From positions 100,851 to 164,850 of the forward strand of contig JAFUXF010000035.1 of the NCBI GenBank assembly GCA_017477185.1: DNA of 64,000 bases, read 5' to 3'. A model generated the notes under the pieces. The model was not told where the DNA came from. It worked only from the letters and a program-made list of their open reading frames with translations, and ran no database searches. Below, in pieces: positions 9,054 to 62,149 of the stretch. The translations under genes were made by a program, and so were the position numbers. This stretch comes from Alphaproteobacteria bacterium (GTDB lineage Bacteria > Pseudomonadota > Alphaproteobacteria > RF32 > CAG-239). Position 1 is the stretch's first letter. Each line of letters opens with the position of its first letter.

Positions 9054-10910
9054 TTACGAGGCTGATTTTAAGCCAACTAGCAGATATTCTCCCATTTTTT
9101 CTGTGTAAAAAGATGGATTCGTCACCACTTCACCCTCAGCAATTTTAGCCTGATCCAAGAGCAACTTCGACACCTCTTCAATCTTTGATTTTTGTCCATC
9201 ATCATGAACCATTTCACTCAATTTAATAATCAGCGGATGATACGGGTTAATCTCTAAAATCCGCGTACTTGCAAAAGCCGTTTGCTGCTGATGATTGCGC
9301 ATTAAGCGCTCAAGGTGAATGCTCATCTGCCCGTCCTCAACCGTCAGGCTGACCGGACTCTTGGTGAGTTTATCCGTGCTTTCGACTTTTCCAACTTCAC
9401 TTTTAAGTGTTTCTGCCATAAATTTTATCAATTTGTCGAGCGAACCCTCTTCGGCTTTAGGTTCCGTCCGCTCAACTTTCAAATCTTCATCTGCCTGAGA
9501 AACATGCTTGATTGTTTTTTCTTTATAACTTGTCAACACTTGTGGCCAAAACTCATCGATCGGATCTGTCAACAGCAAAACCTCAACGCCCTTTGCCTTA
9601 AACGCCTCCAACTGCGGATTATTCCGCAAGGTCGAGACATCATCGCCGGTAATGTAATAAATCGATTTTTGCCCGTCTTTCATACGAGAAATATACTCAT
9701 CTAATGATGTCAATTTTTCTTCATCGTTTGTCGAGGCAAAACGAGACAACTCAGCAACTTCATTCCGATTTGTAAAGTCTTCATAAATACCTTCTTTGAA
9801 AGCCGCTCCGAACGCATTCCAAAATTTCTGATAATCCTCAGCATTTTCGCTACGCTTTTTGAGCTCTTTCAGCAAGCGAGAAACTGTCCCTTGCTTGATT
9901 TTAGCAATCAGCGGACTTTGCTGCAACATCTCTCGTGACAGGTTCAAAGACAAATCTGCCGAATCAATCACCCCTTTCACAAAGCGCAAATACGTTGGCA
10001 ACAACTCCTCAACTTTATCCGAGATAAAGACCTTGTTGACATAAAGCTTCAATCCTTGCTTTTTATCCGGTTGGAACAAATCATAGGGCTGCTCGCTCGG
10101 AACAAACAGCAAACCGGTATATTCTATATTCCCCTCTGCCTTAAAATGTAGCGTCAGCCACGGATCATCAAAGTTTTTAGAAATGTGATGATAAAACTCT
10201 TTGTACTGGTCTTGAGTAATTTCCGCCTTGTTTTTTGCCCACAAAGCCGAACCCGTATTCACCGTCTCTTCACCGGCTTTGCCTAAATCCAAAACAATCG
10301 GATAATCAATATGATCTGAATACAAGCGGACAATCTGACGTAAATAAATACTGTCCAAAAATTCCTTAGCATCATCTTTCAAAAACAGCTTGATAGACGT
10401 CCCATTTGTCGCACGCTCAGCTTCTTCAATTTCAAAACCGCCGACACCGTTAGAAACCCACTTGTAAGCTTGATCTTCTCCTGCTTTTTTAGTCGTCACT
10501 TCAACTTTCTCGGCAACCATAAAAGCCGAGTAAAAACCGACCCCGAATTGTCCTATTAATTCTGCTGCCGAGCCGTTATCCTTCATGTTTTTAACAAAAT
10601 CAGCTGTTCCGGACTTGGCAATTGTCCCCAGATGACTGATTAAATCATCTTTATTCATACCGATTCCGTTGTCCTCAATCGTCAGCGTTTTTTCTTCAAC
10701 ATTCGGAATAATTTTAATTTTCATCTCACCGGAAGTTTTCTTGGCTATTTCCGGATTTGTCAAGCAAACATAACGTAATTTATCACACGCATCACTGGCA
10801 TTAGAAATTAACTCACGCAAAAAAATCTGCCGCTCCGAATAAATAGAGTTAATCATAATATCCAATAACTTACCGACCTCCGCTTTAAAACTGATTTTTC
10901 TACTCATCAT
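9054..10910 (-). CDS. htpG: Chaperone HtpG (Hsp90)
   Basis: IFLRELISNASDA, DNGIGM, IGQFGVGFYSAF. Confidence 0.98.
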   Translation of the reverse strand: MMSRKISFKAEVGKLLDIMINSIYSERQIFLRELISNASDACDKLRYVCLTNPEIAKKTSGEMKIKIIPNVEEKTLTIEDNGIGMNKDDLISHLGTIAKSGTADFVKNMKDNGSAAELIGQFGVGFYSAFMVAEKVEVTTKKAGEDQAYKWVSNGVGGFEIEEAERATNGTSIKLFLKDDAKEFLDSIYLRQIVRLYSDHIDYPIVLDLGKAGEETVNTGSALWAKNKAEITQDQYKEFYHHISKNFDDPWLTLHFKAEGNIEYTGLLFVPSEQPYDLFQPDKKQGLKLYVNKVFISDKVEELLPTYLRFVKGVIDSADLSLNLSREMLQQSPLIAKIKQGTVSRLLKELKKRSENAEDYQKFWNAFGAAFKEGIYEDFTNRNEVAELSRFASTNDEEKLTSLDEYISRMKDGQKSIYYITGDDVSTLRNNPQLEAFKAKGVEVLLLTDPIDEFWPQVLTSYKEKTIKHVSQADEDLKVERTEPKAEEGSLDKLIKFMAETLKSEVGKVESTDKLTKSPVSLTVEDGQMSIHLERLMRNHQQQTAFASTRILEINPYHPLIIKLSEMVHDDGQKSKIEEVSKLLLDQAKIAEGEVVTNPSFYTEKMGEYLLVGLKSAS

Positions 10911-10944
10911 TTGCTCCTTTATTATTTTTATGCCACCTTTTTTC

Positions 10945-11040
10945 TATTCGGGTAGCTTTGTGCTCTCTCCTCGTCATGCTCGAGGGCAAACCCACAGGCT
11001 TTGCCACATCGGGCATCCATATACCGGTTGCGTAGCAACA
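10945..11040 (-). other. GC-rich multi-hairpin segment in the htpG leader
   Basis: Hairpins gttgc-tac-gcaac, ggcaaagcc-tgt-gggtttgcc, ctcg-agcatga-cgag; shares words with the tRNA-associated elements. Confidence 0.45.
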
Positions 11041-11054
11041 CCTCTTTACTACCT

Positions 11055-11083
11055 ATATAGAGGTTGAAAATCCCCAGCGCAAG
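11055..11083 (-). promoter_or_regulatory. Candidate RpoH-type promoter for htpG
   Basis: CTTG-N18-TCTATAT on the minus strand. Confidence 0.45.
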
Positions 11084-11168
11084 AGCACGCGCAAAATTTT
11101 ACTTGATTTTATATAAAATCCCGTTAGATTAGCGATGTTGTCTATAAATTTTTTAGGAGTTAAATAAA

Positions 11169-11408
11169 ATGGTTTCAGTTGTTAATGATTCTTGCATCAA
11201 ATGCAAAACCTGTGCTGGTGTATGCCCGGTTGACGCTTTCCATGAATGTGATTCTCAATTAGTTGTAGATCCTGATGTATGCATCTCTTGCGGTGTTTGC
11301 ATTTCTGAATGCCCGGTTAGCGCAATTTCACCTGAGGATGAAGCTGACGAAGCAACTGTTAAGTTCAATGCAGAGCAAGCAAAAGTCTGCCCGAACGCAA
11401 ACGACTAA
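11169..11408 (+). CDS. Dicluster Fe-S ferredoxin
   Basis: CIKCKTCAGVCP and CISCGVCISECP. Confidence 0.95.
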   Translation: MVSVVNDSCIKCKTCAGVCPVDAFHECDSQLVVDPDVCISCGVCISECPVSAISPEDEADEATVKFNAEQAKVCPNAND

Positions 11409-51560: not shown

Positions 51561-51853
51561 TTCATTTCCTTTTCTTAAAACCCAAAATTATTTTGCGCCT
51601 ATTATATATAAGAAAACCAAATAAAAAAACATTATTTGCAACTTATTGACTCTAAAAAAACTATTCAGCCGAAATGCTATCTTACATCATCGTCACATAA
51701 AGCTATCTTATCCTTGCAATAGTCGGTGGCTATTGTGTGGTATGAGGACCACTCAGAAAGTGCCTGTGCAAGGCATCATTTGCACACTTTCCAGTATGAC
51801 TGAAAGAAAGCTGTTGTCATAAAAAACACAACTAAAATACAGGATCACAAATA

Positions 51854-52267
51854 TCAATTGAATTTTATTTTTCTTCTAATATTGAGAACTGTTGTTACCA
51901 CGAGAGCAATTCCTAACAAAATACCCTTTATTATATAGCCCCAGCTAATATATTCTACCAGTATCGAGTAATATTCTTCACCTTTATATGCTGCCATAGC
52001 TTGCTGATACCCAACAATCATTTCCGGAATCATAAAAAATATTAAATCAATGCATATCAATATTCCTAAACATTTGATATATGTCTCTATATAAGGATGT
52101 TTTTCAAAGAAACTCAAAAATTTAAAATGTTTTTTTATGCATAGAGTTATTAAACTTCCTATAAATGTCAGAAATAAAATGATTTGAATAAAATCATTCG
52201 GAAATAAAAAAGAGAGGATAAAATAAATACCACCCAGATTGAATAAATCATTCCAAAACGTTTTCAT
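51854..52267 (-). CDS. Small hypothetical membrane protein (immunity-like)
   Basis: AGGAG RBS, about 4 TM segments, AT-rich. Confidence 0.7.
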   Translation of the reverse strand: MKTFWNDLFNLGGIYFILSFLFPNDFIQIILFLTFIGSLITLCIKKHFKFLSFFEKHPYIETYIKCLGILICIDLIFFMIPEMIVGYQQAMAAYKGEEYYSILVEYISWGYIIKGILLGIALVVTTVLNIRRKIKFN

Positions 52268-52329
52268 TTTATCTCTCCTTTTTCATTATTTGTTTTCTTG
52301 AGGCTTTAAGTCTTCATAAGTTAGTTGTC

Positions 52330-52806
52330 CTAATCACAAATATCAAAAGCACATTCCTTAAAATTTGAATTATCCGGCAAAACACATTTTTTCATACATT
52401 CTTCTTCCCTAACATTTGAATAATGCACATATAAAGAGAGAAGAGCCAAAATTACCCAATAACAGATATTTTTAATCATCCAAGTGTTTTTGGTTTTATA
52501 TTTTATATAATTTTTAAGTTGAAAACATAGAACGATAGGAATTATAAGAAGATATATTTTGCAAGCATAAATAAAAATTAAATCTGTTATGACAAACAGT
52601 GCCATCATTTTTTTTCCTATCGAAGTATCAAAAAAATCTCCGTCTATTCCGAAAACACATAGCACCCCAGCTAAAAAAATTATTAATAGCAAAAAAGAAT
52701 AAAAGACTATCTTAGCAGAAAGCAGACTAATAAAATTGCAATTAATATTTGATTTTAATGTTTTCCAATTCATAGAGTTTATCCCTGTTTGTGATATAGA
52801 ACACAT
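52330..52806 (-). CDS. Small hypothetical membrane protein with Cys-rich C-terminus (immunity-like)
   Basis: About 3 TM segments, ECMKKC...KECAFDIC tail, AT-rich. Confidence 0.65.
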   Translation of the reverse strand: MCSISQTGINSMNWKTLKSNINCNFISLLSAKIVFYSFLLLIIFLAGVLCVFGIDGDFFDTSIGKKMMALFVITDLIFIYACKIYLLIIPIVLCFQLKNYIKYKTKNTWMIKNICYWVILALLSLYVHYSNVREEECMKKCVLPDNSNFKECAFDICD

Positions 52807-52832
52807 AATAATATCTTAAAAATTTTCTGCAA

Positions 52833-53513
52833 CTATTTATTATAAGGATTATAATACTGTTTCATTAAACTCTCACAATTTGCTGTCGGGTGAGTAAATC
52901 CTTGAGCCAGCCCATCGATATTTGCTTTCATATCTTGCCAAGAATCATTTAATATTTCTCGGTAAGTTTTATATGGACCAATTCCTTGGCGTAAGTTGGC
53001 AGATTTTTCTATAATATCTCCAACTTCTTTTCCTATGCTGCCAAAAGCTGTTGCTCCAGCAGATAATAAACCTCCTTGAGCGCCTGTACAGCTTACTGTT
53101 GCGTGTTTATATTTATCATACATATTCAAGGGATGTAGTTTGCGATATTCATCAACAGCTTTTCCCATAGCAATACCCGAAGATATCGGATTAAAAGTAT
53201 TTTTTACTTGGTTTATACCATCGATTAATGTATTTTGCCAATTTTGCATTGGGCTTGTTCCGTCATTCGCTTGCATATTATTCTGTGCAAATTGCGTTGG
53301 TTGACCGAAGACAGTATTTTGCGATTGCAAATACGGGTTTGGTGTATCAGCTGATGGGACATCGACTGTTTCGATATCGTTTAATGAAGTCCAATCATTT
53401 TGCCCCGGTACAACATAATAATACTCGCTTTCTCCTACTTTCGGATTAGTTCTTCTTAATGGCTTTTGACCACTAAAAATACTGTTTAAGATGTCAAACG
53501 TTTCTCCTGACAT
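52833..53513 (-). CDS. Hypothetical protein with C-terminal serum-amyloid-A-like domain
   Basis: DKYKHA..SC and DSWQDMKAN..G align by eye to SAA DKYFHA..NY and DS.ADQAAN..G; AAGGAG RBS. Confidence 0.65.
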   Translation of the reverse strand: MSGETFDILNSIFSGQKPLRRTNPKVGESEYYYVVPGQNDWTSLNDIETVDVPSADTPNPYLQSQNTVFGQPTQFAQNNMQANDGTSPMQNWQNTLIDGINQVKNTFNPISSGIAMGKAVDEYRKLHPLNMYDKYKHATVSCTGAQGGLLSAGATAFGSIGKEVGDIIEKSANLRQGIGPYKTYREILNDSWQDMKANIDGLAQGFTHPTANCESLMKQYYNPYNK

Positions 53514-53874
53514 TTTCGTTTCTCCTTATTAAATTTTTATTTCCTTTCAATAATAGTGATTAACATTGTTGTAAAACCCTGTTTTAAGTGACAGAATCTC
53601 ACAACATTTTACTATCATATTTTTCTCAAATTATCAAGATATGTTATAATTCTAAACACAACAATCTATTTTTTAGTTAAATTTCATATGGTTAACAAAA
53701 CTTTTCCTGTTAACAAAATATCATAATGTTATATTATTTTCTACAAAACAATAAATAAGCCGATTACTCACTTTATGTATATTTACGCTTTATCTCCTTT
53801 TACCAATAAACAATTGACTTATTTCTTTTTGAGTATACAATCGACAGGACACTGACCATTATGGAGTTTATTAT

Positions 53875-54867
53875 ATGCTATATCCCTCTAAATTAAAACA
53901 AGGTTCACACATTCGAGTTATTGCTCCTTCCAGAAGCTTTAAAATTATTTCTGACGAAACGAGAGAAATTGCTAAAAAACGTTTTGCAGATATGGGAATA
54001 ACCGTGAGTTATTCTAAACATTGTGATGAGATTGATGACTTCGTTTCATCTTCAATTGCATCCAGGCTTGAAGATTTACATGAAGCTTTTGCGGATAAAA
54101 GTGTTGATGGCATTTTAACCGCTATTGGAGGGTTTAATACTAATCAATTAATTGATAAAATTGATTACAATCTAATTAAAAACAATCCCAAAATATTATG
54201 CGGGTTTTCCGATATTACTTGTTTATGCCATGCGATAACAGCAAAAACAGATGTTGTAACATATTCCGGACCTCATTTTTCAAGCTTTGGTATGGCAAAG
54301 GGGTTTGATTATACGTTGGACTACTTTAAGAAATGTTTATTTAATGAAGAGCCTTACCAAGTTTTCCCGACAAAAGATGTTAGCAATGATGCTTGGTTTA
54401 TGGATCAAGAAAATCGGACATTTACCCCAAACGATGGTTTCTGGGTACTAAACGAAGGTCAAGAAAACACGTTAACAGGAAAATTAATTGGTGGTCATGT
54501 CCGTTGTTTGAGTTCTTTGCAAGGAACAAAATTTTGGCCATCATTAAAAGATTGTATTTTGTTCTTAGAAGAAGATGAAGAAACTAATGCCGTTTTATTT
54601 GATCGCTTATTGCAATCCCTTATTCATCAAGAAGATTTTAAATATGTTAAGGCATTGATTATTGGTCGTTTCCGACCCGAATCTGAAATTAACAGAAATC
54701 TATTAGAGCAAATAATCCAAACTAAAGATGCTTTAAAAAAATTACCTGTTATTGCTAATTTTGATATCGGACATTCAACACCGATTATTACTTATCCGAT
54801 AGGTGGACAAATTTCTCTCACAATACGAGGGAGAAATCAGCCGATTATTAAAATTTTGGAGCATTAA
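53875..54867 (+). CDS. S66 peptidase (LD-carboxypeptidase / MccF-like)
   Basis: IRVIAPS, IGGFNTNQL, GFSDIT, LFLEED, DIGHS. Confidence 0.92.
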   Translation: MLYPSKLKQGSHIRVIAPSRSFKIISDETREIAKKRFADMGITVSYSKHCDEIDDFVSSSIASRLEDLHEAFADKSVDGILTAIGGFNTNQLIDKIDYNLIKNNPKILCGFSDITCLCHAITAKTDVVTYSGPHFSSFGMAKGFDYTLDYFKKCLFNEEPYQVFPTKDVSNDAWFMDQENRTFTPNDGFWVLNEGQENTLTGKLIGGHVRCLSSLQGTKFWPSLKDCILFLEEDEETNAVLFDRLLQSLIHQEDFKYVKALIIGRFRPESEINRNLLEQIIQTKDALKKLPVIANFDIGHSTPIITYPIGGQISLTIRGRNQPIIKILEH

Positions 54868-54891
54868 AAAGAGGGAATATTCCCTCTTTTT

Positions 54892-55338
54892 TTATCTTAC
54901 ATGTCTATTTTTCAGTACATCAGCTAAAATCAGATTGAAAGAATTTTTAGTTTGTTGTTCTTCAATAGTGTTTGTTTTTTGAGTTTGTGTTTGAGGATAT
55001 ACAAAACTCATAATTTTTTGAGTAAAAATTCCTTCATTACTGCCATATTCTAAAAGTTCATACTGGTGTAGCGTTTTTCTGAGGACTTCTTTCGGTAAAT
55101 CAGCCTTATCGGCACAGTCTCTCATAATTTCAAGATATTTTTTCATAAGACGATTGGTATTTTCTTTGTTAGACGGCTCCAAACCGTCATTATATAAAGC
55201 CATACTTGTAACAATGGCATCTTCCATTTTAACACGAATATATAGAGTTACATGACTTCTTAGTTCCGGATATTGCTCTTCAATATTTTGAAAATCATCC
55301 TTTAATCCATGACATAAAACACAATCTTTTGACATCAT
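54892..55338 (-). CDS. Hypothetical protein
   Basis: Start placed at ATG 55338; the track start (55416) lies inside a repeat. Confidence 0.6.
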   Translation of the reverse strand: MMSKDCVLCHGLKDDFQNIEEQYPELRSHVTLYIRVKMEDAIVTSMALYNDGLEPSNKENTNRLMKKYLEIMRDCADKADLPKEVLRKTLHQYELLEYGSNEGIFTQKIMSFVYPQTQTQKTNTIEEQQTKNSFNLILADVLKNRHVR

Positions 55339-55363
55339 CAGCCCCCATTTAAACTCTCCGCCA

Positions 55364-55808
55364 TAGTAAGATTTAGAAGATAAAAAAGCGGAGCGTACAC
55401 TGTGAAATAAAAACAATCCTGTGAATTGTTTTTATGAGCCAAGCAATGAGACTTGCTTTTGTGAGTGAGTGTAAACAATACGAAACAAAAGCTTTAGTCG
55501 GAATTGGTACGTGAGGATACTTTTGTCTTGCAGGCAACACCCTAATCGACCATGCCACCTCAAAAACTCAGATAATGAGCCGAGTAGCAGGAGTTAAAAG
55601 TGAAAAAAGCGCAGTGTACATAGAGGTACATGAGCATTTTTTAGCTTGCAAACAACACCCTAATCGACCATTACACAAGTTTTATCACGCATTTTCAAAA
55701 ATAACGATAAATTCGAAAAATAGTAAGATTTAGCAAAAATTGCGACGGGCGCGTACTTTGGGCGGTACGTAACCGAGCAATTTTTGCTAAATCTGCACTA
55801 GTTTTCAA
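55364..55808. repeat. Array of three RPE-like elements (55364-55553 with a nested insert, 55562-55684, 55712-55808)
   Basis: Cores gcggagcgtac/gtacgtgagga, gcgcagtgtac/gtacatgagc and gcgcgtac/gtacgtaac; shared ends caacaccctaatcgaccat and aaatctgcacta. Confidence 0.8.
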
Positions 55809-61311: not shown

Positions 61312-61686
61312 ATGAACTTCTTGAAAAAAAATATTTGGACAATCTGCTCATGGGCATTTGTCTTAACATTATTGGCTGCTGACTCTTTTGCTGCCGGTGA
61401 AGGTTCATCTTTAATGACCACCGCCCAAACAAAAGCAACCAATGTCTTCCAGTCAGTCAAAACCATCACATTTATTATCGGTGGTTTCGGTTTGATTGGT
61501 ATTGCTTACCAAGCAATTATCGGCAAAGTAAAATGGTCTTGGTTTGCAGGTCTGGCTGTTGGTTTGGCATTGCTCGCCGCTGCCGGTGCAATTGTTGAGT
61601 ACGCAACAGGTGCTTCTGGTTACTCTGGATCAGATTCAAAAACCGGTTTAGGCGATACATTCTCTACTGGTTCTACTTATAAATAA
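61312..61686 (+). CDS. VirB2/TrbC-like pilin 1
   Basis: AAGGAG RBS, signal peptide ending SFA, two hydrophobic helices around a basic loop: IIGGFGLIGIAYQAIIGKVKWSWFAGLAVGLALL. Confidence 0.75.
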   Translation: MNFLKKNIWTICSWAFVLTLLAADSFAAGEGSSLMTTAQTKATNVFQSVKTITFIIGGFGLIGIAYQAIIGKVKWSWFAGLAVGLALLAAAGAIVEYATGASGYSGSDSKTGLGDTFSTGSTYK

Positions 61687-61713
61687 ACCGCAAGAGAATA
61701 TCTGTTAACTAAA

Positions 61714-61779
61714 AAAAGGAAGGTGCAACATGAAAAATTTAGCTCTAAATCGCTCACGACACCTTCCTTTTGTTTTTTT
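61714..61779 (+). terminator. Terminator/attenuator-like hairpin between pilin genes
   Basis: 12-bp perfect stem aaaaggaaggtg/caccttcctttt followed by a T tract. Confidence 0.55.
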
Positions 61780-61798
61780 GAAACAAGGAAAAGAAGAA

Positions 61799-62149
61799 AT
61801 GCTGCACATAAATTTAAAGAAATTTTTGCTCGCCGCCGTCATGGTGTTGTTATGTTCTTCAATTTTATTTGTAGCAGATTCGCACGCCGAAGAGTTATTT
61901 GGCGATTTAGCCAAACATGGTGGTAAAATTTTTACCGGCATGCGTGAAATCATTTACGCCGTATCCGGTTTTGGTATTATTGCGATTGCAATAGGATCAA
62001 TTTTTGGACAAGTCAATTACAAATGGCTGACGGCTATTTTGATTGGTTTGTTCGTTATTGCAGCAACAGCGGCAATCATCAACTACATGGTTGATGACAA
62101 CGTTGTTACAACAGAAATGATTACTGACAGCCTTAAAAGCGGTCAGTAG
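61799..62149 (+). CDS. VirB2/TrbC-like pilin 2
   Basis: Signal peptide ending SHA, AVSGFGIIAIAIGSIFGQVNYKWLTAILIGLFVI; alternative start 61730 lies inside the hairpin. Confidence 0.75.
   Translation: MLHINLKKFLLAAVMVLLCSSILFVADSHAEELFGDLAKHGGKIFTGMREIIYAVSGFGIIAIAIGSIFGQVNYKWLTAILIGLFVIAATAAIINYMVDDNVVTTEMITDSLKSGQ

Follow-up and report, generated by a model that had tools for sequence, protein, structure and literature searches.

A phage-linked candidate toxin with a serum amyloid A-like tip and predicted cognate and orphan immunity genes in an uncultured gut alphaproteobacterium

Prokaryotic relatives of serum amyloid A (SAA) have recently been described as parts of bacterial toxins. According to Burroughs et al. 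(eLife 2025, PMC12419801), who surveyed the Lipocone superfamily, the SAA-Wnt clade is characterized by a short fifth helix packed between helices 2 and 4, by three conserved residues (His, Glu, and Asp in helices 2, 3, and 4, respectively), and by the sNxxGR motif; its prokaryotic SAA (prok-SAA) domains serve as polymorphic toxin tips with membrane or periplasmic immunity proteins, MuF is among the delivery domains given for Lipocone toxins, and TelC is the sole characterized Lipocone toxin tip from polymorphic toxins (PMC12419801). The MuF toxins of temperate phages come mainly from Firmicutes and are thought to be capsid-borne and portal-bound, with 96% of muf genes located in prophages or prophage remnants, mostly with portal or terminase genes nearby (Jamet et al., BMC Biol 2017, PMC5576092). 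Here, we analyze a locus of three genes, A, B, and C, in a 64,000-nucleotide stretch of contig JAFUXF010000035.1 from an alphaproteobacterium (this whole stretch is called the window below), and compare it with these systems. The best explanation of the locus as a whole, to which we assign a probability of roughly 0.6, is a phage-linked SAA-like toxin with cognate and orphan immunity genes, a lipid target, and delivery by particles.

The three genes are arranged head-to-tail on the minus strand, and gene A has the ribosome-binding site AAGGAG upstream. Its product, protein A, has neither a signal peptide nor a hydrophobic span and consists of a leader, a linker, and an SAA-like domain. The main features are as follows.

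52833..53513, minus strand: gene A, candidate toxin gene, 226 amino acids, from the open reading frame (ORF) scan
53319..53513, minus strand: N-terminal leader, residues 1–65 of protein A, a predicted trafficking, virion-incorporation module
53199..53318, minus strand: Q/N/P/T-rich linker, residues 66–105 of protein A, from the alignment
52836..53198, minus strand: predicted divergent prokaryotic SAA (Lipocone, SAA-Wnt clade) toxin domain, residues 106–226 of protein A
52330..52806, minus strand: gene B, predicted cognate immunity gene, 158 amino acids (147 if the second ATG is used), from the ORF scan
51854..52267, minus strand: gene C, predicted orphan immunity gene, 137 amino acids, from the ORF scan

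Comparison of sequence profiles makes it highly probable that residues ~106–226 of protein A are homologous to SAA. A profile of the seven closest homologues, run against 1.84 billion representative proteins, found 187 proteins, and 81 of the best 150 matched in the C-terminal domain only. The SAA family PF00277 was matched by 25 out of 92 aligned proteins, mostly relatives of the C-terminal domain, with the best match at E = 1.4e-26 (93.3 bits); P0150, retrieved at E = 4.7e-5 by the profile search, itself matches PF00277 at 1.4e-26. The relatives form a gradient: the nearest ones (P0023, P0028, P0030, P0034) have no PF00277 match, like protein A, intermediates match at 0.077 to 1e-6, and P0029, P0148, and P0150 lie above the family threshold. 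Since protein A itself is below PF00277 detection, its membership in the SAA family rests on this transitive profile evidence. A word-indexed homologue search with the C-terminal domain yielded close relatives only.

A trimmed alignment of 46 C-terminal domains, with protein A as the first sequence, was used for the conservation analysis, the profile search of the PDB, and the structure prediction. Among 177,635 distinct PDB sequences, the profile of this alignment matched SAA chains only, with E-values from 9.8e-10 to 7.5e-5 (the best ones being 7zh7, 9.8e-10; 4q5g, 3.9e-8; and 4ip8, 5e-7), and paired DKYKHA with DKYFHA, KE with RE, and DSxxDxxANxxG with DSxADQxANEWG. Residues D133, H137, E163, D194, and G205 are invariant in the 46 relatives, and C142, G148, D166, S191, G201, and C213 are nearly so. 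The conserved His, Glu, and Asp of the alignment fall on the His, Glu, and Asp of SAA, and the active-site positions of the Lipocones known as H2-His, H3-Glu, and H4-Asp (PMC12419801) are taken here by H137, E163, and D194, respectively.

The AlphaFold2 (AF2) model of the domain, built from the same 46 sequences, has a predicted local distance difference test score (pLDDT) of 94.5 and a predicted template modeling (TM) score of 0.87, and consists of four helices and a short fifth one (residues 109–126, 133–145, 149–176, 184–207, and 213–218); the full-length model from seven sequences was unusable (pLDDT 32), and the domain model was built instead. In the Foldseek search against the PDB, the seven best matches were mouse SAA3 and human SAA1, with probabilities of 0.85–0.99, TM-scores on the target of 0.46–0.60, and 19–23% sequence identity in the structural alignment; against viral predicted structures, nothing exceeded a probability of 0.51. 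The first-pass annotation of this DNA, made from the letters alone, had aligned the C-terminus to human SAA by eye and proposed an SAA fold; the alignment is borne out by the 46-sequence profile with its identical motif pairs, and the fold, by the profile homology, the confident model, and the seven best fold matches, all of them SAA.

As a side observation, P0016 (L004, 6001–6639), a PF00277-positive sister toxin, weakly matches residues 187–293 of klebicin G (PDB 9hn1_D, E = 0.036), and this match was not reproduced by the 46-sequence family profile at E ≤ 1; it hints that klebicin G, a solved bacteriocin, may contain an SAA-like segment.

Protein A can be compared with three described groups of proteins. 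Like the prok-SAA Lipocone tips, its C-terminal domain is a soluble four-helix core with a short fifth helix, retains the His/Glu/Asp residues and the Gly cap, and forms a C-terminal tip followed by a membrane-anchored protein, for which the immunity function is predicted here. Unlike those tips, the subfamily of protein A lies below PF00277 detection and has a conserved cysteine pair (C142, C213), protein A has ANIDGL where the clade has sNxxGR, its carrier is the 65-residue leader without the MuF core, and protein B, with three spans and a 25-residue tail containing four cysteines, is not obviously any of the immunity types listed in PMC12419801. With vertebrate SAA (PF00277; PDB 4ip8, 4q5g, 6pxz, 7zh7), protein A shares the fold and the DKYxHA and DSxxDxxANxxG motifs, but vertebrate SAA is a secreted acute-phase apolipoprotein of the host, with no leader, no cysteine pair, and no immunity partner, and its status as an enzyme is unproven. 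Finally, TelC of the TelC–TipC system of Streptococcus intermedius, a lipid II phosphatase, is likewise a toxin of the Lipocone superfamily and provides the template for the chemistry predicted here; it acts outside the cytoplasm and its immunity is membrane or periplasmic, as we predict for protein A. It differs from protein A in belonging to another Lipocone clade and in being exported by type VII secretion via the LXG domain in a Gram-positive bacterium, and no sequence similarity between TelC and protein A was detected.

Homologues of protein A share residues 1–65 and part of the linker, and then diverge completely. The leader contains two motifs, G.xP[LI]xRxNPKxG[EQ]SEYYY (G.xPLRRxNPKxGESEYYY in protein A) and DVPSxDTPNPYL; the linker varies in length and is deleted in P0007. 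At least eight further types of C-terminus occur in proteins with this leader, so that protein A is a member of a polymorphic toxin family. The joined C-termini are SAA, Tlde1, VgrG3-like C, GH108, phage lysozyme, YkuD, pesticin, and unknown types, and, judging by family, nearly all recognizable tips attack the cell envelope from the periplasmic side; Pfam accessions of colicin-type nucleases occur only among relatives combining the leader with the MuF core. Several leader toxins with differing tips are present in one genome, RUG12396. The N-terminal half of protein A had initially been described as a low-complexity region without a signal peptide; this holds for the Q/N/P-rich linker (residues ~66–105) and for the signal peptide, and fails for residues 1–65, which form a conserved domain.

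Some toxin genes of the arrays are 5′-truncated and begin within or after the leader, e.g., with MNDVKTVDVPS or MQIVDVPS (L004, 5877–5990, next to 6001–6639; L005, 6250–6759 and 9224–9715; L008, 6202–6786 and 7082–7435); these genes look like orphan tips held as recombination stock. In L008, the toxin array and the small terminase gene are separated by a 462-amino-acid ORF (9893–11281), whose Gly-rich N-terminus resembles the C-terminal tip of the leader-bearing protein P0165 (pairwise E = 1e-6) and, less strongly, that of P0015; because of this resemblance, a phage protein may be the source of one unknown tip type.

The leader links protein A to tailed phages. In more than 80 protein clusters from metagenome-assembled genomes (MAGs) of Alphaproteobacteria, the leader is followed directly by the MuF core, with the consensus YYIWRT.GDDKVR..HAEREG.IF.W..PPEGGHPGEDYNCRC, and then by a toxin tip, and some of these clusters are named minor capsid proteins by their sources. 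In phage contig L030, the gene encoding the leader, the MuF core, and a lysozyme-like tip follows the genes for the portal, a 518-amino-acid protein, and the large terminase, and precedes an opposite-strand lipoprotein gene and the genes for the major head protein and tail fibers; its PHROG labels are head morphogenesis, and minor head protein and DNA pilot. The related phage contig L022 has a gene that joins the leader to Tlde1, with no MuF core, between virion structural genes and those for tail fibers. Among the MAG loci, L008 has its toxin array right beside terminase and portal genes, and that of L012 adjoins genes for tail and lysis proteins. Since L008, L022, and L030 share PHROG families of the portal, terminase, or major head protein, they represent one phage group. 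These MuF-core fusions, two phage contigs, and two prophage-adjacent arrays lend substance to the earlier suggestion of possible phage delivery. In L022, the leader–Tlde1 gene is followed by three tandem paralogous membrane proteins of 114–125 amino acids (7645–8785), which look like an expansion of immunity genes carried by the phage. The leader alignment of 30 sequences was too diverse for the locus scanner.

Compared to the MuF toxins, the family of protein A has the same general plan, with a phage head module at the N-terminus, a toxin that varies at the C-terminus, and a small immunity gene downstream; moreover, relatives of protein A contain the MuF core PF04233, and in L030 the gene sits in the packaging module. 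Unlike the MuF toxins, protein A has no MuF core and its host is an alphaproteobacterium, and whereas 96% of the muf genes in that study are prophage-associated, the window locus is isolated among housekeeping genes, as are several core-bearing relatives. The MuF core motif D.[RK]VR...H is missing from the window in all six reading frames. PHROG searches with 35 window proteins gave matches of the housekeeping type only, and on that basis the idea of a prophage residing in the window was rejected. From sequence comparison, we infer that the 65-residue leader may bring proteins into particles and that protein A may be such cargo; the chances that delivery is by phage-derived particles appear about even on this evidence, with loading in trans and a different release route as alternatives.

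Downstream genes provide the second line of evidence for a toxin locus. Hydropathy gives three hydrophobic spans for protein B, whose C-terminus is a short tail containing four cysteines, and about four spans for protein C; no family match was found for protein B in the Pfam and NCBIfam searches. A B-type gene follows an A-type toxin gene in three independent loci, namely, the window, L005 (63% identity to the window for the toxin and 72% for protein B), and L028 (83% and 91%, respectively). The gene after P0016 encodes an unrelated 253-amino-acid membrane protein, not of the B type, and toxins with the P0008 tip are followed by C-type genes; hence, the toxin tip and the downstream gene co-vary. 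P0008 has the same leader as protein A and a different tip, ending in GQLTYEDLKRQENK, and protein C is 91% identical to the product of the gene directly after P0008 in L001 and L006. Taking all this into account, the locus is in all likelihood of toxin–immunity nature, and proteins B and C are likely to be the cognate and orphan immunity proteins, respectively.

Between genes B and C, a short frame, LGQLTYEDLKPQENK with a stop codon, occupies positions 52333..52286 of the minus strand, starts on the stop codon of gene B, and matches 13 of the last 14 codons of P0008. The DNA identity of ~96% between the window and the P0008 locus (L001) starts abruptly at 52332, in the stop codon of gene B, and ends at the stop codon of gene C. 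Two features mark this exchange.

52286..52330, minus strand: remnant GQLTYEDLKPQENK and stop codon, the last 14 codons and stop of a displaced P0008-type toxin, from the match to the P0008 end
51832..51857, minus strand: second, complete 3′ end of gene B, TTGATATTTGTGATCCTGTATTTTAG (FDICDPVF and stop codon), direct repeat D5, compared with the ends of gene B in L028 and L005

The first 14 bases of 51832..51857 copy the repeat at 52346–52333. Thus, the 14-base repeat TTGATATTTGTGAT flanks the cassette formed by the remnant and gene C, and a complete second 3′ end of gene B follows gene C. The history can be read from one locus near tRNA and threonyl-tRNA synthetase (ThrRS) genes, where L001 and L006 have P0008 and gene C, and L028 has the counterparts of A and B, the remnant, and the counterpart of C: L028 compared with L001 and L006 is a classical toxin tip displacement by an incoming tip–immunity pair. 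Arrays with truncated tips are present in L005 and L008. As in orphan modules of contact-dependent inhibition (CDI) and Rhs systems, the displaced tip has left its 3′ fragment and immunity gene after the new pair; unlike in those systems, the fragment in the window is only 14 codons long, and the 14-base repeat and the duplicated end of gene B flank the cassette. Much of this had been foreseen in the first-pass annotation. The positions it gave for the three ORFs are confirmed. The two small, mutually unrelated membrane genes are recovered with three and about four spans; the toxin/immunity-style cassette gains support from the leader being present on many envelope-attacking C-termini and from the B type following the A type in three loci; the combination of cognate and orphan immunity agrees with the 91% identity of protein C to the product after P0008; the short frame taken for a lost-toxin tail matches P0008; and the neighborhood analysis of homologues, suggested there as a check, shows downstream genes varying with the tip.

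The cassette lies in an AT-rich island, which contains two more genes.

51660..55362, strand not applicable: AT-rich island with genes A, B, and C, the S66 LD-carboxypeptidase gene, and a 174-amino-acid ORF
53875–54867: S66 LD-carboxypeptidase gene, within the AT-rich segment
54892–55416: 174-amino-acid ORF with no family match, within the AT-rich segment

The GC content is 26–35% across ~51.6–55.4 kb and 42–46% in the flanking gpmI and PBP1A gene, in agreement with the initial remark that the block is AT-richer than gpmI. The island is variable between strains: in gut-metagenome run X5, one contig fuses 51659 straight to 55363, skipping 3703 bases. In this contig, the LD-carboxypeptidase gene and the 174-amino-acid ORF are gone together with the toxin cassette, and because of this joint absence the LD-carboxypeptidase, an enzyme of peptidoglycan recycling, appears to travel with the cassette. 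In sheep gut metagenome run X12, a low-depth contig links 52516 (the middle of gene B) to 55279 (the 174-amino-acid ORF) across a junction of 11 letters that have no match; toxin A and the LD-carboxypeptidase would be missing from this form. The segment 55226–55680, on the right margin of the island, has metagenome depth 3–5 times that of the flanks and looks like a dispersed intergenic repeat; a 38-nucleotide repeat has two copies with 84% identity at 55521–55558 and 55639–55676, and a perfect 18-nucleotide inverted repeat lies at 55726–55794, around the start of the PBP1A gene. The promoter and terminator scan gave no more sites than shuffled sequence, and no tRNA gene next to the island was found within the window. 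About 8 kb from the toxin, adjacent genes of 124 and 139 amino acids (61312–62149) match the TrbC/VirB2 pilin family and are followed by a gene of ~1143 amino acids, which has no Pfam match and continues past the window end (64000); together, these genes may belong to a system for type IV secretion or conjugation.

Protein A occurs in identical form and with the same neighbors on 13 metagenome contigs from several samples, this DNA is present in bovine, sheep, and other gut metagenomes, and all related genes found come from rumen and gut MAGs of uncultured Alphaproteobacteria or Rhodospirillales. The host is an uncultured alphaproteobacterium of the ruminant gut.

Taken together, the preferred explanation would work as follows. 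The leader, which in related proteins is the start of the phage MuF or minor-head protein, would place protein A into the particles of one specific tailed-phage group, or into prophage-derived ones, and the particle would carry it to the envelope of a neighboring cell. There, the SAA-like domain, probably stabilized by a C142–C213 disulfide, would attack a phosphate-linked lipid head group on the periplasmic side using H137, E163/D166, and D194; by analogy with TelC, the likeliest target would be lipid II or another undecaprenyl-linked precursor. Protein B, a three-span membrane protein with a Cys-rich periplasmic tail, would provide cognate immunity, and protein C would be leftover immunity against a P0008-type tip displaced by recombination, with the last 14 codons left behind. 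That the domain acts in the periplasm and targets a phosphate-linked lipid head group, such as that of lipid II, is proposed only tentatively; the proposal comes from the analogy with TelC and the superfamily-level reasoning of the survey, with support from the conservation of the triad, a likely disulfide, and a predicted immunity protein anchored in the membrane. Toxicity, the periplasmic site, the lipid substrate, the immunity function, and particle delivery are likewise predicted properties of this system.

A number of results weigh against this interpretation. Protein A alone has no match to any Pfam family at E ≤ 1, PF00277 included, except noise, and no NCBIfam or, by phmmer, PDB sequence match. 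Its Smith–Waterman alignment with an SAA chain is weak (z = 2.6, with 43 out of 2000 shuffled sequences scoring as well), and with such a score the by-eye SAA alignment is a lead rather than evidence. The four-sequence profile of the C-terminal domain yielded only noise against the PDB, and with hhalign it did not match three PF00277-positive sister tips, the latter failure being due to both profiles being too shallow. The Foldseek E-values of 0.2–0.8 are not significant on their own, a common outcome with small helical bundles. Where the clade has the motif sNxxGR, protein A has A197-N-I-D-G-L202, the Asn and Gly being retained and the Arg replaced by Leu; L, I, or R occurs at this position in the relatives. 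On the delivery side, protein A has no MuF domain (PF04233, with no Pfam match), and the leader alone may therefore be insufficient for packaging. No phage structural PHROG match was found at 1–45.8 kb of the window and no phage structural gene within 10 kb on either side of the locus, and two toxins with both the leader and the MuF core, P0222 and P0238, are similarly isolated among housekeeping genes. Finally, as TelC is the sole characterized tip, no prokaryotic SAA toxin has been experimentally tested (PMC12419801).

Some of these observations would also fit other explanations. If the C-terminal domain were an unrelated helical bundle resembling SAA by convergence or chance, the weak pairwise score, the lack of Pfam and PDB matches for protein A alone, and the Foldseek E-values above 0.1 would be expected; the unbroken gradient of relatives from protein A to strong PF00277 matches, the profile matching nothing but SAA among the PDB sequences and at 1e-9, the alignment of the same motifs, and SAA as all seven best fold matches make this highly improbable. 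The isolation of most loci from phage structural genes would agree with a bacteriocin of the colicin M or pesticin kind, released by lysis, with the leader and linker used for receptor binding and translocation across the outer membrane and no particle involved. Such a protein might well have no signal peptide and a disordered Q/N-rich linker after a short N-terminal domain, all identifiable sister tips act in the periplasm, one being a pesticin-type lysozyme, and some arrays stand beside phage lysis genes. Still, we consider it unlikely, as in most relatives the leader is fused directly to the MuF head-morphogenesis core, in L030 it is the N-terminus of the phage's own MuF protein near the terminase and portal genes, and the island contains no lysis or release gene. 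A TonB box at the start, ET.DIL, was considered and rejected, since this segment is not conserved as a TonB-box-like strand in the wider family.

The link to phages could, on the other hand, be taken further, with the leader proteins being internal virion or ejection proteins that open the envelope upon phage entry, the membrane proteins causing superinfection exclusion, and the window locus being what is left, stranded and now without a role, of a prophage that has decayed. The L022 gene does lie where internal virion proteins of podoviruses are found, the sister tips are cell-wall enzymes typical of virion-associated lysins, and the island is AT-rich and absent from a related strain. Against this stand the intact state of gene A, its good ribosome-binding site, and its unchanged sequence on the 13 contigs, which come from several samples; recombinational tip swaps leaving orphan immunity genes are a signature of toxin–immunity arms races, and the several leader toxins with different tips in RUG12396 and the nuclease-type colicin domains among sister tips also argue for toxins, so that we view an entry enzyme as improbable. 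Less probable again is cargo of type VI or type IV secretion systems (T6SS, T4SS) with the leader as an adaptor-binding tag. It is suggested by sister tips matching Tlde1 and VgrG3-like C, Pfam families named after T6SS effectors, and by the two TrbC/VirB2-like pilin genes ~8 kb away (61312–62149), but these toxin families occur with many delivery systems, and the known T4SS killing effectors have their signal at the C-terminus, which is the variable part here. No vgrG, hcp, PAAR, or adaptor gene was found within 6–10 kb among the Pfam-annotated genes of the window and seven related loci, with no dedicated search for MIX or FIX motifs; the T6SS version, prompted by the Tlde1 and VgrG3-C names, was rejected, as no linked T6SS gene was seen at any locus examined.

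Returning to the phage-linked SAA-like toxin, both its halves are of already described kinds, the prok-SAA toxin tips (2025) and the MuF toxins (2017). New are the tip subfamily, which is invisible to Pfam, so that such loci are currently labeled hypothetical; the carrier, which is the leader only, without the MuF core; and the placement of the locus, scattered in the chromosome of gut Alphaproteobacteria away from any prophage. The 120-residue domain and the 158-residue predicted immunity protein make a compact candidate pair with clear catalytic candidates, and the identity of the substrate would bear on the original role of the SAA fold and hence on the biochemical role of vertebrate SAA. 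The leader, in turn, is a defined 65-residue candidate tag for protein entry into phage heads, and its occurrence with and without the MuF core, both in phage genomes and far from them, makes the delivery of MuF toxins and the loading of chromosomal cargo testable. A bolder and rather doubtful extension is that gut and rumen Alphaproteobacteria may keep scattered chromosomal toxins, each with a 65-residue MuF-derived tag, that are loaded in trans into particles of resident phages or domesticated particles and injected into neighbors. If true, these bacteria would have a capsid-based system for protein delivery whose exchangeable cargo is encoded in the chromosome, and one cargo would come from the bacterial toxin family that is the presumed source of vertebrate SAA and would act on lipid-linked cell-wall precursors.

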